A stretch of 64,000 bases of DNA, taken from NCBI GenBank assembly GCA_030427205.1, contig JAUHXC010000011.1, forward strand, positions 44,016 through 108,015, read 5' to 3'. Shown in pieces: positions 3,482 to 64,000 of this stretch. Position 1 is the stretch's first letter. The number at the start of each line of letters is the position of its first letter. Below the pieces are notes generated by a model. It was not told where the DNA came from. It made no database searches and saw nothing but the letters and a program-made list of their open reading frames with translations. Origin of the DNA: a bacterium. GTDB taxonomy: Bacteria; Myxococcota_A; Bradymonadia; UBA7976; UBA1532. The translations under genes were made by a program, and so were the position numbers.

Positions 3482-4207
3482 TCAGCGGCGACGGCGTCGG
3501 CGTTTGGCCTCGGGCAGCCGGCGCAGGGCCGCCAGATCCTCCAGGCCGGCGAGCGTCGCCCGCAGATAACCCGGCGACAGCGTCTCGACCAGCGCCAGGG
3601 TGCGGGCGGCGAGCGCCTCGGGGTTGTACGGGCCGACGTCGTCGGCGACCCGATCGCTGGCCCGCGCGACGACCAGCGCGCTGCGGGCGTGATCCGCCGC
3701 CTCGCGGAACAGCGCCCGGGCGAGCTGATCGCCCACGGTGCGCAGCTCGGGCAGGTCGGCTGCGGCTTCGGCGGTCGCGGTGGCGGCGTGCACCCGGGCC
3801 CGCAGCGCCGGCTGAAGGGTGAGGCCGCGGCTGCGGGCCTGTCGCGCCAACCGCACCACCCGGGCCCGGGCGGCGTCGGCGTCGTCGGTGCGCGCCCGCC
3901 GCAGCGCCCGCGGGGCCTCGCGGCGCACGAAGCCGTAGTCTCCGCTGGCGAACGCCCGGGCGAAGTCACCGTCGGGATCGGCGTCGGCCGCGTCGAGGGT
4001 GGCCAGGGTCGCCCGCGCCTCCGCCCGGGCCGAGGCGAACGCCGCTTCGAAGCCCGACAGCCGCTCGGCGGCCCGTCGACGCAGGTGGTCGCCGGCCACG
4101 CCGTCGAGCCCCTCGGCCCGCTCGAGCAGCGCCTCGATGAAGCGAAAACCGGGCCCGTCGAAGACCTCCGCTCCACCGGCGCGCAATGTCTCGAGCCTGC
4201 GCTTCAA
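3482..4207 (-). CDS. DUF2894-like Ala/Arg-rich hypothetical protein; third gene of the MotA/MotB-like module
   Basis: In frame with the over-long ORF 3482..4918. There is no ATG. A TTG at 4207-4205 sits 6 nt downstream of AGGAGG and overlaps the TGA stop of the upstream MotB-like gene (TTGA overlap). The 242-aa product 'MKRRLETLRAGGAEVFDGPGFRFIEALLERAEG...' is helical. It resembles DUF2894 proteins found with DUF802 and OmpA genes. Confidence 0.5.
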   Translation of the reverse strand: MKRRLETLRAGGAEVFDGPGFRFIEALLERAEGLDGVAGDHLRRRAAERLSGFEAAFASARAEARATLATLDAADADPDGDFARAFASGDYGFVRREAPRALRRARTDDADAARARVVRLARQARSRGLTLQPALRARVHAATATAEAAADLPELRTVGDQLARALFREAADHARSALVVARASDRVADDVGPYNPEALAARTLALVETLSPGYLRATLAGLEDLAALRRLPEAKRRRRRR

Positions 4208-8504: not shown

Positions 8505-8630
8505 CCGATCCTCCGGGGGCTGGTGCAGATACGGCAGCCGGTCATCGCCGACCGATCGACCGCTGTCAAGGGTCACGGGGGGCAAAAAACGTCACTGGTC
8601 CGGGCAGATGTATCGGTCGACCATGCGCCG

Positions 8631-10283
8631 ATGCGCTGGAGCCCGATCATCGCTGCGCTGCTGCTGCTCCCGTCGACGGCGGGGGGACACGGCGGTGAGC
8701 CGAGCGTCACCGGCCTGCGGTTTCCGAGCCAGCGCCCGGGCGAGGTCTGGGCGATCACCGACAACCAGGGGCTCTACGCCGCGCGGGGCGATACGACGGC
8801 GTGGCTGTGCGAAGACGCCGTGGCGCCGGCCGCCGGCATCGACGACATCGTGGCGCTGGGCGACGGGCAGCGGTGGCTCATCCTGACCGACGATGGTGTG
8901 TTCACCTCGGACGACGGCGGCTGCACGTTCGGCGGCGCGCCGGTCGCGCTGGCCGATCAACAGGTGGCCGCGCTGTCGGGCCACCCGCTCGACCCGGCCG
9001 AGGCGGTGGCGGTCACCGAGACCTTCGCCGCCGAGAACGACGTCTGGCTCACCGCCGACGGCGGCGGCACATGGCGCGCGGTCGGCCTCGGCCTGCGCGG
9101 GCGATTCACCGGTCTGCTGCGCAGCGAAGCCGACCCCGAGCGGCTGTACGCGCTGCACGATCGCGGCGCCTATACCAGCGGCGACGGCGGCCGCCGCTGG
9201 CAGCCGATCGCGCTCGGGCCGCCCGAGCTCGCGGCCTTGCCCTCGGCGGTGACCCTGCTCGCCGCCCCGCCCGGCGCGCCCGAGCGGATCTATCTGGGCA
9301 TCGAGCGTCCGGCCGGGCTGGTCGTGGTGCGCAGCGACGACGCCGGCCGCACCTGGCGCGAGGCGGTACGGGTCGACGACTTCGAGGCGCAGCTCGTCTT
9401 CGACGGCGACGGCCGCGAGGGTCTGCTGCTGACCGCGTTCGACGGGCTGCGGCGCACCGCGGACGGCGGCGCGACCTGGGGTGATGCCGCGCCGCTGCCG
9501 GTCGAGCGCCTGCAGCGCATCGGCCGGGCGCCCGACGGGCGCTTGTGGGGCAGCACCGGCTTGTTCTTCGGCGGGCCGTTCGCCCTGGGCGTCAGCGATG
9601 ACTTCGGCCGGACGTGGGCCCCGGTTCTGGTGCGGTTCGAAGACGTCGACGCACGCTGGGATTGCCCGCCGCCGAGCCCGGCCCGCACATGCTGCGAGAC
9701 GCTCTGCCCGGGGCAGCCGATCGACGCGATGTGCGTGGGGCAGGTGCCCGACGAGGGCGGCGCGTGCGCGTCGGCGCTGGATCCACCACCCGGGCCGCTG
9801 CCCGGCTTCGAGGTGGATGGCGGGGTGGACGCCGCGCCGCTCGACGGCGGCCCGGCGGACGACGGGGTCGACCGCGGCTCGGATGCCGCAGCCCTGGACG
9901 CTTCAGCGGTGGATGCCACGGCGTCGGACGTCACAGAGCCGGACGCGCTGCCGGACGGGGCGCGTCGCGATCGGGGCCCGTCAGTCGACAGCGAGCCGAC
10001 GGACGCGGGGATGCTCGACGGTCGCGTACCGGACCGCGGATCGCCCGATACGGGCGCCGCGGGTTTGGACTCGACCGTACCGTATCCACCGCCGCCCGAT
10101 GGCGAGCCGCCGATCTACGCGCCCGACGTCACCGTGATCCCGGCGCATCCGGCGAGCGACGGGTGCGCCCAGCGGCCGGGATCGGCGCCGCCGTGGTGGC
10201 TGGCGCTGCTGGTGCTCAGCGCGCGGTGCCGACCTTGGCGTCTTCGACCTCGGCGTCGACCTCGTCGGGGGTCGGCTCGATGA
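8631..10283 (+). CDS. secreted BNR/Asp-box repeat protein with a putative MYXO-CTERM-like sorting tail
   Basis: Signal peptide 'MRWSPIIAALLLLPSTAGG'. At least five S/T-x-D-x-G-x-T-W Asp-box motifs: 'TADGGGTWRAV', 'TSGDGGRRWQPI', 'SDDAGRTWREA', 'TADGGATWGDA', 'SDDFGRTWAPV'. Pro/Asp-rich linker. The C-terminus reads 'GCAQRPG...WWLALLVLSARCR...RRR', which resembles a myxobacterial C-terminal sorting signal. Confidence 0.75.
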   Translation: MRWSPIIAALLLLPSTAGGHGGEPSVTGLRFPSQRPGEVWAITDNQGLYAARGDTTAWLCEDAVAPAAGIDDIVALGDGQRWLILTDDGVFTSDDGGCTFGGAPVALADQQVAALSGHPLDPAEAVAVTETFAAENDVWLTADGGGTWRAVGLGLRGRFTGLLRSEADPERLYALHDRGAYTSGDGGRRWQPIALGPPELAALPSAVTLLAAPPGAPERIYLGIERPAGLVVVRSDDAGRTWREAVRVDDFEAQLVFDGDGREGLLLTAFDGLRRTADGGATWGDAAPLPVERLQRIGRAPDGRLWGSTGLFFGGPFALGVSDDFGRTWAPVLVRFEDVDARWDCPPPSPARTCCETLCPGQPIDAMCVGQVPDEGGACASALDPPPGPLPGFEVDGGVDAAPLDGGPADDGVDRGSDAAALDASAVDATASDVTEPDALPDGARRDRGPSVDSEPTDAGMLDGRVPDRGSPDTGAAGLDSTVPYPPPPDGEPPIYAPDVTVIPAHPASDGCAQRPGSAPPWWLALLVLSARCRPWRLRPRRRPRRGSAR

Positions 10284-40913: not shown

Positions 40914-41080
40914 GCCCGCCGCGCCGTCCACCCGCGGCCCCTCCGTTCGACCCCCCTTCCAACTTCGTCCGCGCCCGACGACGTCTCGTCGACCAGCGCC
41001 CGCTCGTCGGCGACCCGCACCAAAAATCCTGCAGGCCCCCCGGGTGACCCACTACAGTGCGGTCTCTCGCGGAGGTCGTC

Positions 41081-44000
41081 ATGCCGTCACCCGACCGTCA
41101 TCTCTTGCCCGTGCTGGGGCTGCTGCTGCTCTGCGGCTGTGATCCGGGCGGCGGCGCGTCGCCGGAGACCGACGGCGCCGCGGTCGATCGCGGCGTCGCG
41201 GTGGACGTCGGCGCGGCGGACGCCGGCCCAGCGGACGTCGGCGCAGAGGACATCGGCGCAGAGGACGTCGGCGCAGAGGACGCCGGCACCGAGGACGTGG
41301 GGCCGGAGGACGCTGCGCGCGACATGGCCGGGCCGGACATGACGCCGCTCGACATGGCGCCGCTCGACATGGCGCCGCTCGACATGAGCCCGCCGGACGC
41401 GGCGCCCGCCCCGCGCAGCGCGCCGATCATCTCCGAGTTCATGGCCAGCAACCGCGATACGCTGCTCGACGAGACCGGCGGCAGCCCCGACTGGATCGAG
41501 CTGCACAACCCGGGCAATACGCCCTACGACCTCGACGGCCATCACCTCACCGACGACCTCGACGCGCCCACCCGCTGGCGGTTTCCGGCCGTCGAGCTGC
41601 CGCCGCAGGGTTATCTGATCGTCTTCGCCTCGGGGGACGACCGCCGCGACCCCGACGCCCCGCTGCACACCGACTTCCGCCTGGACGCCGACGGCGAGAC
41701 CGTCGCGCTGACCGGCCCCGCCGGCGATGTGATCCACGCCATCGAGGACTGGCCGGGCCAGGCGACGGGCGTCAGCTATGGCTACCCGATGCGGATCGGC
41801 CGGACGGCGCTGCTCGACACCGGCAGCCCGGCGCGGGCCTGGATCGGGCCCGATCCCGAAGGGGCCGAGCGGCCCGACTTCGACGATGGCGACTGGCTGC
41901 CGGTGACCCAGGGGGCGGGCGTGGTCGCCCGCGGTCCGGGCGAGCCGCGGCCCGCGGGTATCTACGATCTGGGCCCGCAGCTGGGGCTGGCCGACGTCTT
42001 CTGGCTGCGGATTCCGTTCGCGGTGCCCGATGGCGACGACGGCGCCGACCTCGAGCTGGAGCTGACCTACGACGACGGCCTCACCGCGTGGGTCGACGGC
42101 GAGCTGGCCCATCGGGACAACGACGTGCTGGGCGCGACCACCGATCGGCCGGACTCGCGGGCGCTGGGGCGGGTGCGCATCCCGCTGCCCGAGCGGGCGG
42201 CGGGGCCGGGCGCGATCACGCTGCGCGCGGTGGACGCGGCGGCGGCCGACGGGCTGTTCTTCGCCGCGGCCCGGGTGGTGCGGCCGGGCGTCGTCATCGC
42301 CGACGCGGCGCGCCACCTGCCGACGCCGACGCCGGGCGCGCCGAACCTGATCGACGCCCGCGGGCTGGGGCCGATCGTGGTCGACCTCGATCGGCATCAG
42401 CCGCTGCTCGAAGGCCAGCCGCTGCGCATCGGCGCCCGGGTGATCGAGACCGACGCGCCGGTGGCCGCCGTGCGGCTGCATCACCGGGTGATGTTCGGCC
42501 CGGAGCAGACGACCGAGATGCTGCGGGTGGACGACGGGCGCTGGCTGGCCGAGCTGGACACCGCCCGCGTCGCGCCGGGGCAGATGATCCGCTGGCGGGT
42601 CGAGGCGGTCGATCTCGAGGGGCGCACGGCCCGCGAGCCGCCTTTCCTCGATCCGCTCGACAGCGAAGAGTACGTCGGCACGGTGGTGCATCAGCGCATC
42701 GAGACCAACCTGCCGGTCTACCACTGGTTCGTCGAAGATCTGGCGGCGGCGGGCACCGAGGCGGGCACCCGCGGGGTGCTGTGGTACGACGGCGAGCTGT
42801 ACGACAACATCGAGATCGACCTGCACGGGCAGGCGACGACGCGGTTTCCCAAGAAGAGCTACAACTTCGACTTCAATCGCGATCACCGCTTCCGGGTGCG
42901 CGACGACCTCGAGCGGGTCAAGGACTTCGACCTGCTGACCAACTACGCCGACAAGTCGAAGATGCGAAATACCTTGTCGTACGGCATGTTCCGGGACGCG
43001 GGCCACGCGTATCACCTGGTTTTTCCGGTGCGGCTGCACCTCAACGGCGAGTTCTTCGCGGTCTACGAGTTCGTCGAGGATCCCGACGAGCGCTGGCTGC
43101 GGCGCATGGGCTACCCCGAGCCATTGGGCTCGGTCTACAAGTGCTACGATACGCTGGCGAGCGTGAACGGCAGCGAGAAGAAGACCTTCGAGGAGGACGG
43201 CACCGCCGACCTGCAGGCGCTCATCGACGGGCTGGGGCAGCCGGGGGACGCGCGGCGGCGCTTCATCTACGACCACGTCGACCTGGCGGGCATGGCCAAC
43301 TTCGCGGCGATGCTGTTCATCACCTCGGGCCGCGACTGCTGCACCAAGAACTACTACGCCTATCGCGACCACTCGACCGACATGTGGTGGTACCTGCCGT
43401 GGGACATCGACCTGAGCCTGGGGCGCAACTGGACCGGCAGCTACTTCGACGACCGGATGTTCCCCGAGAACCCGCTGTACGAGGGGCAGGAGAACCGGCT
43501 GATCGGGTCGCTCTACGCGCTGCCGGAGTTCCTCGAGATGTACCACCGGCGGGTGCGCACGCTGGCCGACGAGCAGATGCAGAGCAGCGCGACGCCGTAT
43601 GAAGAGCGCTACCTGGAGAACGAGGCCGATCGCTGGCAGGCGATCATCGGCGCCGACGCGGCGCTGGACAACGCGGCGTGGGACACCTGGGGGCAGCCGC
43701 AGACGATGGCCGAGGCGGTCGAGATCATGAAGACCGAGTGGCTGCCCGGCCGGCGGGCCTATATCTACGGGCAGCTCGCGCAGCGGGACGGCGGCGGGCC
43801 GGTGACGACGCTGATCGACGGGGCGACGGGGGCCACCCGCGGGCGCTGGTTCGTGCCGGTGGACGACGGGCTGGGCGAGGCGTGGACCGCGCCGGACTTC
43901 AATGACGGCGGCTGGGACGCGGGGCCCCTGGGCATCGGCTACGAGAACGGCAATGGCTACCAGGCGCTCATCGCCAGCGAGGTGCGGCCGGCGGCGGTGA

Positions 44001-44670
44001 ACCCGGCGGCGACCACCGTGTTGGTGCGGATCGAGTTCGAACTCGACGCGCCGGCCGATCTGCCGGTGCTGCGCATGAAGTACGACGACGGCTACGTGGC
44101 GTACATCGACGGGGTCGAGGTGGCCCGGCGCAACCTGTCCCCGGGGCCGGTGAGCTGGAACGACAGCGCGGCGGTGCACGACGACGGGGCCGCGGTGCGC
44201 TTCGAAGATCTGCCGCTCGACGGGCTGGTGCTCGCGCCGGGCCGGCACGTGCTGGCCATCCGGCTGGTCAACGCGGGCGCCGACTCGAGCGACTTCCTGC
44301 TGCAGCCGGCGCTGGTCGACGGCCTGCCGGCGGTGGGCGACGGGCCGCTGCCGCCAGCGCAACCGGCGGAGGTGGACGTAACGTTCGAAGCGGACGAGGC
44401 GGCCGGCGCCGAGAGCTTCGTGGCGCTGCGCAATAGCGAGGCCTTCGCGGTGGACATCTCGGGCTGGCGGCTCTCGGGGCGCGGCATCGAGCACGTCTTC
44501 CGCGGCGGCACGGTCATCCCGGCGGGCGGGCAGCTGTACGTGGTGGCCGATGTGCCGGCGTTCCGGGCGCGCGCGCAGGGGCCGCGCGGCGGGCAGGGGC
44601 TCTTCCTGCAGGGCAACTGGCGCGGCGAGCTGGTGGAGGGTCCGCTGGACGGGCTCGCGCTGGAGGCGCC

Positions 44671-44674
<4 letters not shown>
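41081..44674 (+). CDS. CotH-family kinase-like protein flanked by two lamin-tail (LTD) domains; lipoprotein
   Basis: GGAGG is 5 nt upstream of ATG 41081. Lipobox 'LLLLCGC'. N-terminal low-complexity region with tandem repeats. LTD 1: 'IISEFMASN...PDWIELHNPGNTPYDLDGHHLTDD...PPQGYLIVFASGD'. CotH core: 'VYHWFVEDLAAAGTEAG...YNFDFNRDHRF...DLLTNYADKSKMRNTLSYGMF...YKCYDTLASVNG...KNYYAYRDHSTDMWWYLPWDID'. LTD 2: 'FVALRNSEAFAVDISGWRLSG...GGQLYVVAD'. Confidence 0.85.
41200..41400 (+). repeat. tandem 18-bp (GAEDxG) and 15-bp (PLDMA) repeats in the 5' end of the CotH gene
   Basis: 'gacgtcggcgcagaggac' units repeat from about 41200 to 41310. 'gacatggcgccgctc' occurs four times from about 41336 to 41395. 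The translations are 'DVGAADAGPADVGAEDIGAEDVGAEDAGTEDVGPED' and 'MTPLDMAPLDMAPLDMSPPD'. Confidence 0.7.
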
Positions 44675-56852: not shown

Positions 56853-57940
56853 GGGCGCCGCTGGCGCTGGCGCTGGCCGCGACGCTCGCGCTGAGCGCCT
56901 GCCGCGCCGAGAGACCCGGCCCCGCCGAGCGGCCCACCGAGGCCGCCCGCCCCGCCGAGTCCGCGCCGTCCGAAGCCCCCGCGGCGACCCGCCCCCCGCC
57001 GCACACCTTCCGCGCCGAGCTGATGGGCACCCCCTTCGGCCTGAGCATCGCCGGCGACATCCCGCCGGCGGAGGCCCGGGCCGCGGCCGACGCCGCATTC
57101 GCCGAGGTCGCCCGGGTCGAGGCCTTGCTGAGCGAGTGGCGCCCCGACTCGGAGATCAGCCGCATCAACGCTGCGGCCCCCGCGCCGGTGAAGGTCTCCG
57201 CCGAGACCCGCGCCGTGCTGGGCCACGCGCTGGACCTCGCCCGATCGAGCCAGGGCGCCTTCGACCCCACCTGGGCCGCGCTGCGCGGCATCTGGCGCTT
57301 CGACTGGCGCGACGACGAGCGCCCGCGGCTGCCGCAGAAGAGCGCGCTGATGGCCGCGCTCTCCCGGGTCGACCACCAGAAGGTGCACATCGAAGGCGAG
57401 GCCGTGCGCCTCGGGCAGGCCGATATGGCGCTGGGGCTCGGCGGCATCGCCAAGGGCTACGGCATCGATCGCGCGGCGCAGGTCCTGCGCGCGCGGGGCC
57501 TTCGGCGGTTCATCGTCGACGGCGGCGGCGACCTCTTCGTCGCGGGGCTCAAGGCGCCCGGCACCCCGTGGACGATCGGCATCCGCCACCCGCGGGACGC
57601 CGGCCGGCTGCTGGCCGAGCTGCCGGTGACCGACGCGGCGGTGGTCAGCAGCGGCGACTACGAGCGCTTCTTCGAACTGGGCGGCCGGCGCTACCACCAC
57701 ATCATCGACCTGCGCACCGGCCAGCCCGCCGAGCGCAGCGTCGCGGTGACGGTGCGCGCGCCCGACGCGACCACGGCCGATGCGCTGGCGACGGCGATCT
57801 TCGTGCTCGGCAGCCGGGACGGCCTCGCGCTCGCCGCGCGCCACCCGAAGGTCGAAGCGGCGGTGCTCACCCCCGACGGCGCGGTGCATGCCACCGCCGG
57901 CCTGCGGGCGGCCCTGCCGACGCGCTGGCAACCCAGGTGA
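56849..57940 (+). CDS. apbE: FAD:protein FMN transferase (ApbE family) lipoprotein
   Basis: GTG 56849 overlaps the previous stop (GTGTGA). Lipobox 'LAATLALSAC'. Conserved 'GLGGIAKGYGID' and 'RRYHHIIDLRTGQPA'. In frame with the C-terminal part of spurious ORF 54269..57940. Confidence 0.85.
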   Translation: MRAPLALALAATLALSACRAERPGPAERPTEAARPAESAPSEAPAATRPPPHTFRAELMGTPFGLSIAGDIPPAEARAAADAAFAEVARVEALLSEWRPDSEISRINAAAPAPVKVSAETRAVLGHALDLARSSQGAFDPTWAALRGIWRFDWRDDERPRLPQKSALMAALSRVDHQKVHIEGEAVRLGQADMALGLGGIAKGYGIDRAAQVLRARGLRRFIVDGGGDLFVAGLKAPGTPWTIGIRHPRDAGRLLAELPVTDAAVVSSGDYERFFELGGRRYHHIIDLRTGQPAERSVAVTVRAPDATTADALATAIFVLGSRDGLALAARHPKVEAAVLTPDGAVHATAGLRAALPTRWQPR

Positions 57941-57971
57941 CAGCCCGTCATCGGGATGTTACAGCACACCG

Positions 57972-59987
57972 ATGGAGATCAAGCCGTCCTACCCGGCGCT
58001 CGTCATCGGCTTGCTGCTGATCATCGGGGCCAGCGTCCTGCCCATCGATCGCGGCGCCGTCTTCGACCACCAGGTGGACGGGCTCTTCCCCGAGGTCATC
58101 GCCGAGCTCGAGCCCGCCGACGGCCCCATCGGCCCGGTTCGGCTCTCGTGGTTCGAAACGAATGCGGACACCGCCGCCCGGCTCAACGGCGTCTTGCGCG
58201 CGGCGACCGTCGACACCGCCGCCGGGTCGGTCCCCCGCTTCCAGATCACCGAGAAGGCCGACGCGCCCGTGCTGCACCTGCAGGCGCGGCATACGAGCGG
58301 CAGCCGGCTGGAGGTCTCGGCGAGGTTCACCGACGGCCAGAGCGCGAAACGCACGGCGTACTGGGCCGATTGGACCTCGCTGCTGCCGCCGCTGGTGGCG
58401 CTGGTGCTCGCCGTGGGGCTCAGGCGGGTCGTGCCGGCGCTCTACATCGCCGTCTTCGTCGGGGCGACGCTGCTGCACGGCGGCAACCCGCTGTGGGCCG
58501 CATGGGTCGAGATCCGCGGGCTGTTCGGCGCGCTGGCCGGCGCCTTCGGCATCGGCTCGGCGCCCACCGAGGGCTATCTGGCCGGGGTCGTCGCCGACAG
58601 CTTCAACCTGCAGATCCTCGGCTTCACCTTCGCCCTGGTGGGGCTGGTGGCGGTGGTCAGCCGCATGGGCGGCACCCGGGGGCTGGTCGACGCGCTCGCC
58701 CCGCTCGCCCGCGGCCCGCGCAGCGCGCAGGCGGTGACCGCCAGCATGGGCACCGCGGTCTTCTTCGACGACTACGCCAACACCGTCGTCATCGGCACCA
58801 CCGCCCGCACGCTGACCGACAAGCACCGCCTCAGCCGCGAGAAGCTGGCCTATATCGTCGACTCCACCAGCGCGCCGGTGGCCGGCATCGCCATCGTCTC
58901 GACCTGGATCGGCTACGAGGTCGGCCTCTTCGACGACCTGCTCTCGACCCTCAGCGCCGTGCCCGACATGCCCGGCAGCGGCTACGAGATGTTCTTCGCG
59001 GTGCTGCCGCTGCGCTTCTACTGCCTCTTCGCGCTCGCGCTGGTCTTCATCGGCGCGTTCACCGGCCGCGACCTGGGCCCGATGCTCGCCGCCGAGCGCC
59101 GCGCCCGCAGCGGCGGCCCGCTCGCGCCGGACGGCTCGGTCGAGAAGGAGCCCGTCTCGGTGACCAAGGCCGGAGTGCCCGCCCGAGCGGGCAACGCCAT
59201 CCTGCCCATCGGCGCGGTGCTGCTGGTGACCGTCGGCTTCATCCTCGGCGCCGGCACCGGCCCGATGGCCAGCTTCTCGCCGCTGTCGCTCGGCGACTGG
59301 AAGGTGGTCTTCGACAACGCCGGCGGCGACATCGCGCTGATCCTGCTCGCCGCGGCGCTGGTGGGCTCGGCGGTGGCCTTCACCCTGGCCCTCGGCCAGC
59401 GGCTGCTCTCGGGGCGCGAGGCGGTCTCGGCCTATACCGACGGCATGAAGACGCTCGCCGAGGCCGCTGCCGTGCTCATCGCGGCGTGGGCGATCAAGTC
59501 GGTCTGCGACGGCCTGAGCACCGGCCTGACCATCGTCGCGCTCATCGGCGACGGCCTGCCGCCGCTCTGGATCCCGCTGACGGTCTTCTTGATGTCGGGG
59601 GTCATCGCGTTCAGCACCGGCACCTCGTGGGGCACCATGGCCCTGGTGCTGCCCATCGCCGCCCCGCTGTCGGCGACGTTGTCCGGCGAGCCGCTGATCG
59701 TGCTCGCCAGCCTCGGGGCCGTGCTCGACGGCGCGATCTGGGGTGACCACTGCTCGCCGATCTCCGACACCACCGTGCTCTCGTCGACCGCGTCGGGCTG
59801 TCCGCACCTGGCCCACGTGCGCACCCAGCTGCCCTACGCGACCCTGGCCATGCTCGCAGCCGGGGCCTGGGGCTATCTCGGCGTCGCCGGCGGCCTGCCG
59901 CTGCTCGCCGCCTACGGCCTGGGGCTGGTCACGATGGTCGCGGTGATGCTCATCTTCGGTCGTTCGGCGACTGCCCGGTCCGTCTGA
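57972..59987 (+). CDS. NhaC-family Na+/H+ antiporter-like membrane protein with an N-terminal extracytoplasmic extension
   Basis: ATG 57972 ('MEIKPSYPALVIGLLLIIGASVL'). An ~140-aa soluble segment is followed by about 12 TMs, including 'MGTAVFFDDYANTVVIGTTART' and 'IAFSTGTSWGTMALVLPIA'. The 64 upstream codons in the ORF track are Arg/Cys/Pro junk. Confidence 0.6.
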   Translation: MEIKPSYPALVIGLLLIIGASVLPIDRGAVFDHQVDGLFPEVIAELEPADGPIGPVRLSWFETNADTAARLNGVLRAATVDTAAGSVPRFQITEKADAPVLHLQARHTSGSRLEVSARFTDGQSAKRTAYWADWTSLLPPLVALVLAVGLRRVVPALYIAVFVGATLLHGGNPLWAAWVEIRGLFGALAGAFGIGSAPTEGYLAGVVADSFNLQILGFTFALVGLVAVVSRMGGTRGLVDALAPLARGPRSAQAVTASMGTAVFFDDYANTVVIGTTARTLTDKHRLSREKLAYIVDSTSAPVAGIAIVSTWIGYEVGLFDDLLSTLSAVPDMPGSGYEMFFAVLPLRFYCLFALALVFIGAFTGRDLGPMLAAERRARSGGPLAPDGSVEKEPVSVTKAGVPARAGNAILPIGAVLLVTVGFILGAGTGPMASFSPLSLGDWKVVFDNAGGDIALILLAAALVGSAVAFTLALGQRLLSGREAVSAYTDGMKTLAEAAAVLIAAWAIKSVCDGLSTGLTIVALIGDGLPPLWIPLTVFLMSGVIAFSTGTSWGTMALVLPIAAPLSATLSGEPLIVLASLGAVLDGAIWGDHCSPISDTTVLSSTASGCPHLAHVRTQLPYATLAMLAAGAWGYLGVAGGLPLLAAYGLGLVTMVAVMLIFGRSATARSV

Positions 59988-60048
59988 GAACAGGCCGCTC
60001 GTGCGCCCGTCGGCGCCGCCCCGCTGCAACCGGTTTCGAAAAGAGAAA

Positions 60049-60075
60049 CGCCCGAGCGCAGGCTCGGGCGTCTGG
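60049..60075 (+). terminator. intrinsic terminator-like hairpin downstream of the NhaC-like gene
   Basis: 'CGCCCGAGC-gcag-GCTCGGGCG' is a 9-bp perfect stem with a 4-nt loop. It lies 60 nt after the stop and is followed by 'tctggtggg'. Confidence 0.45.
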
Positions 60076-60094
60076 TGGGCGATTGCGCCCCAAA

Positions 60095-60207
60095 GTCCCC
60101 TGGAGCGGCGTGGATGCTCCAGCTCCGGGGGTGGTCGGAGCATCCGACTCCATCGAAGAACGATGCGGGCGGCATCGTGGGGAGACCTCGTTGGAGCTTC
60201 CAGGGGA
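60095..60207. other. nested hairpin element (candidate small structured RNA or REP-like element)
   Basis: Outer pairing 'cccctggagc' (60096-60106) with 'gcttccagggg' (60196-60207). It encloses hairpin A, 'ggatgctcc-N17-ggagcatcc', and hairpin B, 'cgatgc-gggcg-gcatcg'. Confidence 0.25.
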
Positions 60208-60471
60208 CATTGCGACCCAATCGTCACTCACCCCGCGGTACCTCTCGGCACCGACGTTCACCAATATAGCGGCTGAATTCGAAAACGCAAAATGACGAAA
60301 CCGTCATCCGCAAGATTTACCTTTTGATTTCGAATACTTGAGCGCGAAAAAAAAGTTTGAATAATCCAGATCCGGCCGTCCGGGTCATGGCAGCAGATCG
60401 AACCATCTGTGATCGAACCAGTCGGAGAGCGCAGGTGAAACGCGACGCGACGGGGACGCTTCGGGCGGCGC

Positions 60472-63830: not shown

Positions 63831-64000
63831 ATGGCTCATTTCGCGGTCGGCGACATCGCGGTGTACCAGGGACAGGGCATCGGTCGGATCACCGAGATCA
63901 GCACCATGGAGGTCGCCGGATCTTCCCTCGAGTTCTACACCGTGCACATGGACAGCGGCACCATCGTCCGGGTGCCGACCCACAAGGCCGACGACGTCGG
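63831..64000 (+). CDS. cdnL: CarD/CdnL/TRCF-family RNA-polymerase-interacting domain protein, 5' partial
   Basis: GGAGGG lies 4 nt upstream of ATG 63831. 'MAHFAVGDIAVYQGQGIGRITEISTMEVAGSSLEFYTVHMDSGTIVRVP' matches the CarD_CdnL N-terminal fold pattern. The gene runs off the window edge. Confidence 0.65.
   Translation, partial: MAHFAVGDIAVYQGQGIGRITEISTMEVAGSSLEFYTVHMDSGTIVRVPTHKADDV

Follow-up and report, generated by a model that had tools for sequence, protein, structure and literature searches.

In the 64,000-nucleotide stretch of contig JAUHXC010000011.1 (assembly GCA_030427205.1) that we analysed as a whole, and that we refer to as the window, a gap of 484 bp (59988-60471) separates two convergent genes, one for a protein of the Na+/H+ antiporter family and the other for a TPR protein. 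We are confident that this gap holds a gene on the minus strand for a non-coding structured RNA with a predicted length of about 218 nt. Compensatory substitutions support each part of this RNA: the hairpin on its 5' side, the three-way-junction core and the intrinsic terminator. An earlier reading of the same DNA, the first-pass annotation, had described four separate elements here (a terminator-like hairpin, a nested three-hairpin element, an anomalous AT-rich block with a palindrome, and a direct repeat) and had suggested either an unannotated small RNA (sRNA) gene or a mobile or integrative remnant. Three of the four proved to be parts of a single minus-strand unit, namely its terminator, core and promoter region, while the direct repeat is a separate, non-conserved local feature. 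The suggestion of an sRNA gene is strongly supported by eight conserved loci, compensatory changes, promoter-like boxes, a terminator of its own and a non-coding sequence. The fuller explanation, in which the gene stands alone, is driven by an assisted or gated promoter of its own and yields an RNA that acts in trans, is one that we favour with moderate confidence.

The structural evidence comes from a set of eight distinct loci. The consensus structure was obtained with RNAalifold from A6, a MAFFT alignment of the eight full-length sequences that was not fitted to the structure. Its centre is the nested-hairpin element, which had been placed at about 60095-60207 and whose true extent is 60082-60221, or 140 nt. 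Outer arms of 25 nt (60080-60104 and 60199-60223), which are 84% complementary, enclose two inner hairpins (60112-60145 and about 60147-60197), and the junction strands measure 1, 1 and 7 nt. Across 68 pairs in A6, standard pairs fill 93.7% of 541 cells, as opposed to 35-47% when the 3' partners are slid by one to three columns. Additionally, 23 of the 68 pairs show double-sided changes, compared with 12.2 +/- 2.1 in shuffles, of which 0 of 500 reach 23; the significance of these shuffle figures is overstated because the eight sequences are related and belong to one narrow clade, a weakness of which the slid-partner control is free. The covarying pairs are distributed over several helices: P1 has 6 among its 7 pairs, basal P3 has 5 among 12, P4 has 3 among 9 and the terminator has 5 among 10. 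Covariation of the hairpins among related genomes, on which the first-pass annotation had let its interpretation depend, was therefore found. Other parts of the structure do not vary at all: 15 of the 21 pairs of P2 are constant, as are its U.U and G.G mismatches and the J4/2 junction. Three C-rich motifs, UCUCCCC, CCGCCC and CCACCCCC, are invariant in all eight homologs and unpaired in the consensus structure. By inspection, the P4 loop offers a GGAG segment that might base-pair with a CUCC segment of the P3 internal loop; both segments are invariant.

The orientation of the gene follows from several observations. When the region 60030-60300 is folded as RNA, the minus strand reaches -135.5 kcal/mol with z = -6.9, as against z = -3.2 for the plus strand, and the paired alignment columns contain 39 G-U cells but 12 A-C cells. 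Because of this G-U bias and the position of the U-tract, we assign the RNA to the minus strand of the window. The terminator-like hairpin that had been claimed is indeed present, with a perfect 10-bp stem (60048-60057 and 60062-60071) that can be extended to 12 pairs over 60046-60073. The terminator scan places its T-run (tail CTCTTTTCGA) on the minus strand, and the hairpin therefore terminates a leftward transcript and not the antiporter gene. It stands at the same place in all eight homologs, where the stem sequences differ (in L097 the stem is entirely different) and the tail UUCGUUUCGAA is conserved. The antiporter open reading frame (ORF) called in L097 extends on the minus strand to 3816 and so takes in this terminator (3831-3857) near its 3' end; there, the 3' ends of the convergent genes overlap, or else the ORF has been called too long. 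For the window, we set the 5' end of the RNA 7 nt downstream of the -10 box (+/-2 nt) and its 3' end at the end of the terminator U-tract.

Table 1. Features of the sRNA locus and its flanking genes (window coordinates)
Feature	Position	Strand	Basis or remarks
Predicted sRNA transcript, ~218 nt	60039..60256	-	Eight-homolog alignments A3 and A6, covariation, fold z; predicted ends
sRNA terminator hairpin (intrinsic), 12 pairs and a 4-nt loop	60046-60073	-	Terminator scan; U-tract ~60039-60048
Conserved three-way-junction core	60078..60227	-	Covariance model R1; helices 2-6 of the pair counting
P1, 7-bp 5' hairpin CGGUGCC-GAGA-GGUACCG	60236-60253	-	Structure kept, sequence varies
P2, 21-bp closing stem with invariant U.U and G.G mismatches	60199-60221 with 60082-60104	-	
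P3: 12 bp, internal loop UCUCCCC (60179-60185), 7 bp, apical loop CCGCCC (60167-60172)	60147-60197	-	
P4, 9 bp; loop 60121-60136 contains CCACCCCCGGAG	60112-60145	-	
J4/2 junction ACGCCGC	60105-60111	-	
-10-like hexamer TATATT	60263..60268	-	Read from the alignment; 7 nt upstream of the predicted start
-35-like hexamer TTGCGT	60285..60290	-	Same in 7 of 8 homologs (TTGTAT in L089)
Palindrome TGACG-N4-CGTCA	60293..60306	-	Centre at about -43 relative to the predicted start
Conserved AT-rich upstream block TTATTCAAAC-T8-CG..CTCAA..GAAATCA	60321..60367	-	Conserved columns in alignments A1 and A2
Direct repeat GATCGAACCA-tctgt-GATCGAACCA	60396..60420 (copies 60396-60405, 60411-60420)	.	Window-specific
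Na+/H+ antiporter-family gene	57780..59987	+	Pfam Na_H_antiporter; convergent with the sRNA gene
TPR protein gene, 1039 amino acids	60472..63591	-	Pfam TPR families; constant syntenic partner upstream of the sRNA gene

The anomalous AT-rich block and its palindrome were also borne out. GC content is 43-46% over 60250-60399, and the 200-nt bin 60201-60400 (50.5% GC) is the lowest of the whole window, which otherwise lies at about 65-83%. This block contains the two promoter-like boxes. Among the homologs the -10 box reads TATATT, TACAAT, TATGAT or TATGGT, so that T1, A2 and T6 are invariant and the middle varies, which, as far as the alignment can tell, is how a -10 hexamer evolves. The TTG of the -35 box is invariant as well, and the boxes are always 16 nt apart, the alignment of the homologs being free of gaps here. 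On this pattern of conservation, the sRNA probably has its own promoter. No match to the sigma-54 promoter pattern was found in 59988-60471 at up to 3 mismatches. A divergent plus-strand promoter called by the scan (TTGAGC-16-AATAAT) was set aside, its -10 box not being conserved in L083, L087 and L088 on inspection of the alignment.

Upstream of these boxes, the palindrome keeps its half-sites invariant in seven of the eight homologs while its 4-nt spacer varies; the window has this one copy, and in the roughly 1 Mb of loci that were retrieved the palindrome is confined to the homologous sites. It may serve as the operator of a dimeric regulator, as a weak terminator hairpin of the TPR gene, or as both. 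Its position and geometry would fit a dimeric activator that offsets the weak -35 box, or a repressor that overlaps this box. Followed by TTTTGCGTTTT, the palindrome also scans as a weak terminator hairpin and may help to end TPR transcripts. Further upstream, in the conserved AT-rich upstream block, the T-run is preceded by a hairpin in several homologs, and this block may represent the T-tract of a TPR terminator and/or an upstream promoter element or nucleoid-protein site. The direct repeat lies exactly where it had been reported, but it is unremarkable: close 10-nt direct repeats occur at 74 places in the window. It is situated in the variable spacer, the region of its first copy is partly conserved and its second copy is missing in the homologs. 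We rejected GATCGAACCA as a binding site, as it is not conserved and statistically ordinary, and the repeat is outside the conserved unit.

In the gap alignments (A1, A2 and A5), the stretch just past the TPR stop codon is variable, and the strongly conserved unit runs from the AT-rich block through the terminator. A covariance model of the 151-nt core, R1, matches the minus strand of the window with 165.5 bits (E = 8e-35), while the plus strand reaches 31 bits. Across the eight distinct loci its scores are 155-175 bits on the strand of the TPR gene, and 31-45 bits on the opposite strand. Identity to the window copy amounts to 78-93% in the core, 26-79% in P1 and the linker, 39-67% in the terminator region and 65-88% in the adjacent TPR coding DNA. 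Beyond this set, R1 produced no convincing match over 90 other loci. A BLAST search of the intergenic region against the 64-kb window itself gave no second copy, so that the search for further nested hairpins which the first-pass annotation had proposed came back empty for the window. Within about 1 Mb of related loci the element was found only at the orthologous site, and plasmids, phages and viral contigs yielded no match to it. A pattern scan of 241 million metagenome records with CCACCCCCGGAG-N12-25-CTCCAGGGGAC, that is, 23 bases in two blocks, retrieved no further true copy. Its three matches, on JGI contigs (L091:2303-2347, L092:1098-1142 and L093:1179-1223), were dismissed as chance: they are the same unrelated coding sequence (GATCCACCCCCGGAGTCCTCGGGCGTAGCCAGCAGCGCTCCAGGGGACCC), and none has a covariance-model match. 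A literature search found no description of this RNA. We therefore file it as a new sRNA family without earlier description. On present sampling it is confined to one small group of uncultured Myxococcota.

The nearest relatives of the window are metagenome-assembled genomes (MAGs) labelled Myxococcales, Bradymonadia or simply "bacterium". TPR orthologs with 84, 79, 75, 68, 66, 64 and 52% identity were located on contigs, and 3' of every one of them lies a gap of 340-465 nt that carries the RNA element. The RNA thus stands directly 3' of a TPR ortholog (identity of at least 52%) at each of the eight distinct loci, whatever the far neighbour. On the far side of the gap the antiporter gene is a frequent but not an obligatory neighbour: it is present in most loci, and its place is taken by an SLT/TPR protein in L083 and by another TPR protein in L089. 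At the closest antiporter locus, L001 (83% amino acid identity), a different convergent gene follows about 20 nt after the antiporter gene, without such an intergenic region, and because of this we conclude that the element does not travel with the antiporter. L083 comes from the same MAG as L001, and there the RNA adjoins the TPR gene.

More distant TPR orthologs (37-46% identity) gave no RNA within +/-3-6 kb and have no gap; instead, the TPR gene overlaps the start of a three-gene operon. This operon occupies the position of the sRNA gene and overlaps the TPR stop codon (L090:5885-8249, L094:9276-13597, L095:9150-13491 and L096:8934-13175). In L094-L096 it encodes products of 207-220 and 342-363 amino acids, both without a Pfam match, and a CHAT-domain protein of 809-848 amino acids, while in L090 the first two products measure 204 and 336 amino acids and the third gene is cut at the contig end. 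As for the TPR protein itself, family matches are limited to the first ~340 of its 1039 residues and consist of TPR repeats plus a weak, sub-threshold resemblance to PEP-CTERM PrsT. Its C-terminal ~700 residues have no family match, yet they are conserved across the orthologs.

Our proposed mechanism starts from the AT-rich block, which would act both as the promoter region of the sRNA and as the T-tract that ends the TPR transcript. Transcription would begin near 60256 from a sigma-70-type promoter (TTGCGT, 16 nt, TATATT). The -35 box of this promoter is weak, and a dimeric regulator that occupies the palindrome TGACG-N4-CGTCA, at about -43, could aid or gate it. The RNA would then act in trans by exposing UCUCCCC in the internal loop of P3, CCGCCC in its apical loop and CCACCCCC in the P4 loop, which is the most speculative step. 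Through base pairing with G-rich sequences that resemble Shine-Dalgarno sites, these C-rich segments would reduce the translation of target mRNAs, as in 6C and RoxS/RsaE. Trans-acting translational repression is our leading mechanism because three invariant single-stranded segments are C-rich; by analogy with these sRNAs we advance it tentatively, at somewhat less than even chances.

Apart from the overstated shuffle significance mentioned above, several points weigh against this explanation. The start and ends of the RNA, and even its independent transcription, are deduced from sequence. The -35 box matches the consensus at only 3 of 6 positions, and because of this the promoter scan missed the candidate promoter and made no call. 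In L089 the palindrome is degenerate (TGACC-AAGA-AGTCT). Furthermore, the core is conserved almost base by base, helices and non-canonical pairs included, which goes beyond what seed pairing needs, and this degree of constraint points to a protein partner or a tertiary fold. At the one local site examined, the Shine-Dalgarno sequence of the TPR gene is GAGGU, and its complement CCUC is not in the loops; target prediction at large is not possible from a 64-kb window. Pairing of the sRNA with the ribosome-binding site of the TPR gene was rejected, as a GAGGUC resemblance and a CGACC complementarity are not conserved. A riboswitch or cis-acting leader was rejected too: downstream of the RNA come its own terminator and then a convergent, variable neighbour, so that the unit stands alone and leads into no gene.

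Comparison with known RNAs places the candidate outside the described families. An Rfam scan, which had been proposed as a check, returned no match: with the 4227 covariance models of Rfam 15, nothing in the whole window reached the gathering threshold, and at E <= 10 (for a 2.5-kb region, and for the RNA alone with lax filters) only chance matches of 13-18 bits to the terminator hairpin appeared. The closest functional parallels are 6C RNA of Actinobacteria (RF01066), whose hosts also have high GC content, and RoxS/RsaE of Firmicutes. Both are stand-alone sRNAs with an intrinsic terminator, in which C-runs in the loops pair with G-rich ribosome-binding regions. Our candidate shares with them conserved, exposed C-runs in hairpin loops, an intrinsic terminator and a probably stand-alone unit, but it is about three times longer, has a three-way junction and a 21-bp closing stem, and occurs in Myxococcota-type MAGs; what the RNAs have in common is the principle of C-rich loops. 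RF01066 and RF01820 were not among the Rfam matches at E <= 10.

With 6S RNA (SsrS, RF00013), which binds RNA polymerase holoenzyme and serves as the template for product RNAs, the candidate shares a size of about 180-220 nt, a long terminal closing stem and high sequence conservation. Additionally, GUCGCAAUGUCCCCUGGA briefly resembles, by inspection, what we take to be the 5' segment of Escherichia coli 6S RNA (UCGCAA...GUCCCCUGAGC), which we treat as a lead only. Identity with 6S RNA was nevertheless rejected on both the covariance model, which gave no match at E <= 10, and the architecture: 6S RNA is a rod with a large two-sided central bubble, whereas the candidate forms a three-way junction with 1 nt on the 5' side, and its P3 and P4 covary. 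A retron or an omega-RNA/reRNA guide was likewise rejected, since no reverse transcriptase, IscB or TnpB gene is adjacent and the neighbours in all loci are TPR, antiporter, ApbE, CdnL, SLT and similar genes. Among RNAs of the same phylum, the Pxr sRNA of Myxococcus has three stem-loops (SL1-SL3) and lies immediately downstream of pxrR, a gene for an NtrC-like response regulator (PMC5684412). Like Pxr, the candidate would be a regulatory sRNA of Myxococcota with several stem-loops, directly downstream of a protein gene on the same strand. On the other hand, its upstream gene encodes a TPR protein, its predicted length is about 218 nt, made up of a junction core (about 150 nt) and two hairpins, and it has no sigma-54-type promoter match; it is by this description that we set the two apart.

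The main rival to a seed-pairing sRNA is an RNA that owes its function mainly to its shape; it might serve as a scaffold or sponge, regulate a protein, catalyse a reaction or bind a ligand. The constraint on some 150 nt of core, described above down to the fixed P2 pairs, mismatches and J4/2, speaks for such an RNA, all the more as P1 and the terminator drift freely in the same genomes; the three-way junction with an asymmetric internal loop and the possible GGAG/CUCC tertiary contact between the P4 loop and the P3 internal loop point the same way. However, the TPR gene is the only candidate partner gene that travels with the RNA, protein-binding and catalytic Rfam families show no similarity to it, and so narrow a phylogenetic range would be unusual for a housekeeping ribonucleoprotein. 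We consider this alternative a serious one, with perhaps a minor share of the probability. A bolder version, which we think rather unlikely, takes the RNA as a new complex-folded class, its core of about 150 nt with non-canonical pairs and C-rich loops being the platform or active centre of a lineage-specific ribonucleoprotein of Myxococcota. One possibility within it is a regulator of the transcription or translation machinery; the RNA might be functionally tied to the TPR protein, at the position where distant relatives carry the three-gene operon that includes CHAT. Equally improbable in our judgement is that the element belongs to the 3' untranslated region (3'-UTR) of the TPR mRNA, either as a stabiliser or regulator in cis or as an sRNA cut out of it, with the promoter boxes fortuitous or secondary. 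Enterobacterial sRNAs such as CpxQ and SroC arise in this way; like them, the element lies on the strand of a protein gene, at the 3' end of that gene, and the two may use a common terminator. The constant position of the element, on the same strand and immediately 3' of the TPR gene at all eight loci, is what this origin would predict; terminators between the TPR stop codon and the RNA are weak or inconsistent among homologs, and the sole strong one is that after the RNA. Yet the conserved -35 and -10 boxes at fixed spacing, together with the upstream block, are hard to explain without promoter function, several homologs (L087, L085) have a good hairpin and T-run right after the TPR stop codon, and the spacer from the stop codon to the AT-rich block is unconserved and of varying length. 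Unlike CpxQ and SroC, the candidate has conserved promoter-like boxes of its own and lies 215 nt from the stop codon, unconserved spacer included.

The mobile or integrative remnant that the first-pass annotation had offered is largely refuted, and we give it a very small probability. It would make the 25-nt arms terminal inverted repeats like those of a miniature inverted-repeat transposable element, the AT-rich DNA foreign, and the direct repeat a target duplication or attachment site. An imperfect 25-nt inverted repeat, the lowest-GC DNA of the window and a nearby 10-nt direct repeat are what one would expect of it, but the window holds one copy of the element, which keeps to its fixed site 3' of the TPR gene throughout some 1 Mb of related loci. 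The plasmid, phage and viral searches were negative as described, and no tRNA or integrase lies nearby (the tRNA/tmRNA scan was negative in the region). Moreover, the arms covary with a G-U bias like an RNA helix, and the AT-rich block is itself conserved among species while the direct repeat is not. Least credible of all is that the region encodes a small protein, or that it is a simple terminator region whose hairpins arose by chance. Mechanical ORFs of 64-104 amino acids do cross the region on both strands, and an AUG or GUG follows a purine-rich stretch inside P3. However, 1-nt indels within otherwise invariant sequence (CCTGG-A/CCTGGAA and GATG-CC/GATGCCC) shift every frame, and because of them we conclude that the RNA is not translated; the ORFs also run through the terminator into the antiporter gene, and where this AUG, the only one behind a purine-rich stretch, becomes GUG, the base that pairs with it changes in compensation (columns 88/102). 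Chance hairpins are excluded by the fold z of -6.9 and by covariation.

Some further observations concern the surroundings of the sRNA gene. A gene of the CarD/CdnL family, whose members are RNA-polymerase-binding proteins (its product starts MAHFAVGDIAVYQGQG...), occupies window positions 63832-64000 on the plus strand, divergent from the TPR gene. This divergent pairing of CdnL and TPR genes is kept in most loci with sequence upstream of the TPR gene, other genes being found there in L095, L087 and L088, and a gene for an XRE-type helix-turn-helix protein lies beyond the CdnL gene in L081, L085 and L089. A link of the CdnL or XRE-type genes to the sRNA is speculative; the XRE-type protein is one candidate for a regulator that would bind the palindrome. 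Elsewhere in the window, ARAGORN called a 91-nt tRNA-Val(cac) at 42187-42277 on the plus strand, within an ORF of 1205 amino acids and high GC3 (41057..44674); the Rfam scan of the whole window at the gathering threshold found no tRNA, and the call is probably a false positive. The crude ORF map that was used for ranking intergenic lengths is unreliable, as it missed real ORFs, for example 8523..10283.

To our knowledge, Pxr apart, the regulatory RNAs of Myxococcota are almost entirely undescribed, and those of these uncultured lineages wholly so. While the narrow distribution of the candidate and the lack of a functional clue limit its wider importance, it offers predicted ends, a structure supported by covariation, a candidate operator and a covariance model. 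Furthermore, its locus suggests that where a GC-rich genome contains an island rich in AT, the island is not necessarily of foreign origin but can be the sign of a conserved promoter. Finally, the strong, base-by-base conservation of the RNA suggests that it has a specific molecular partner in these bacteria.

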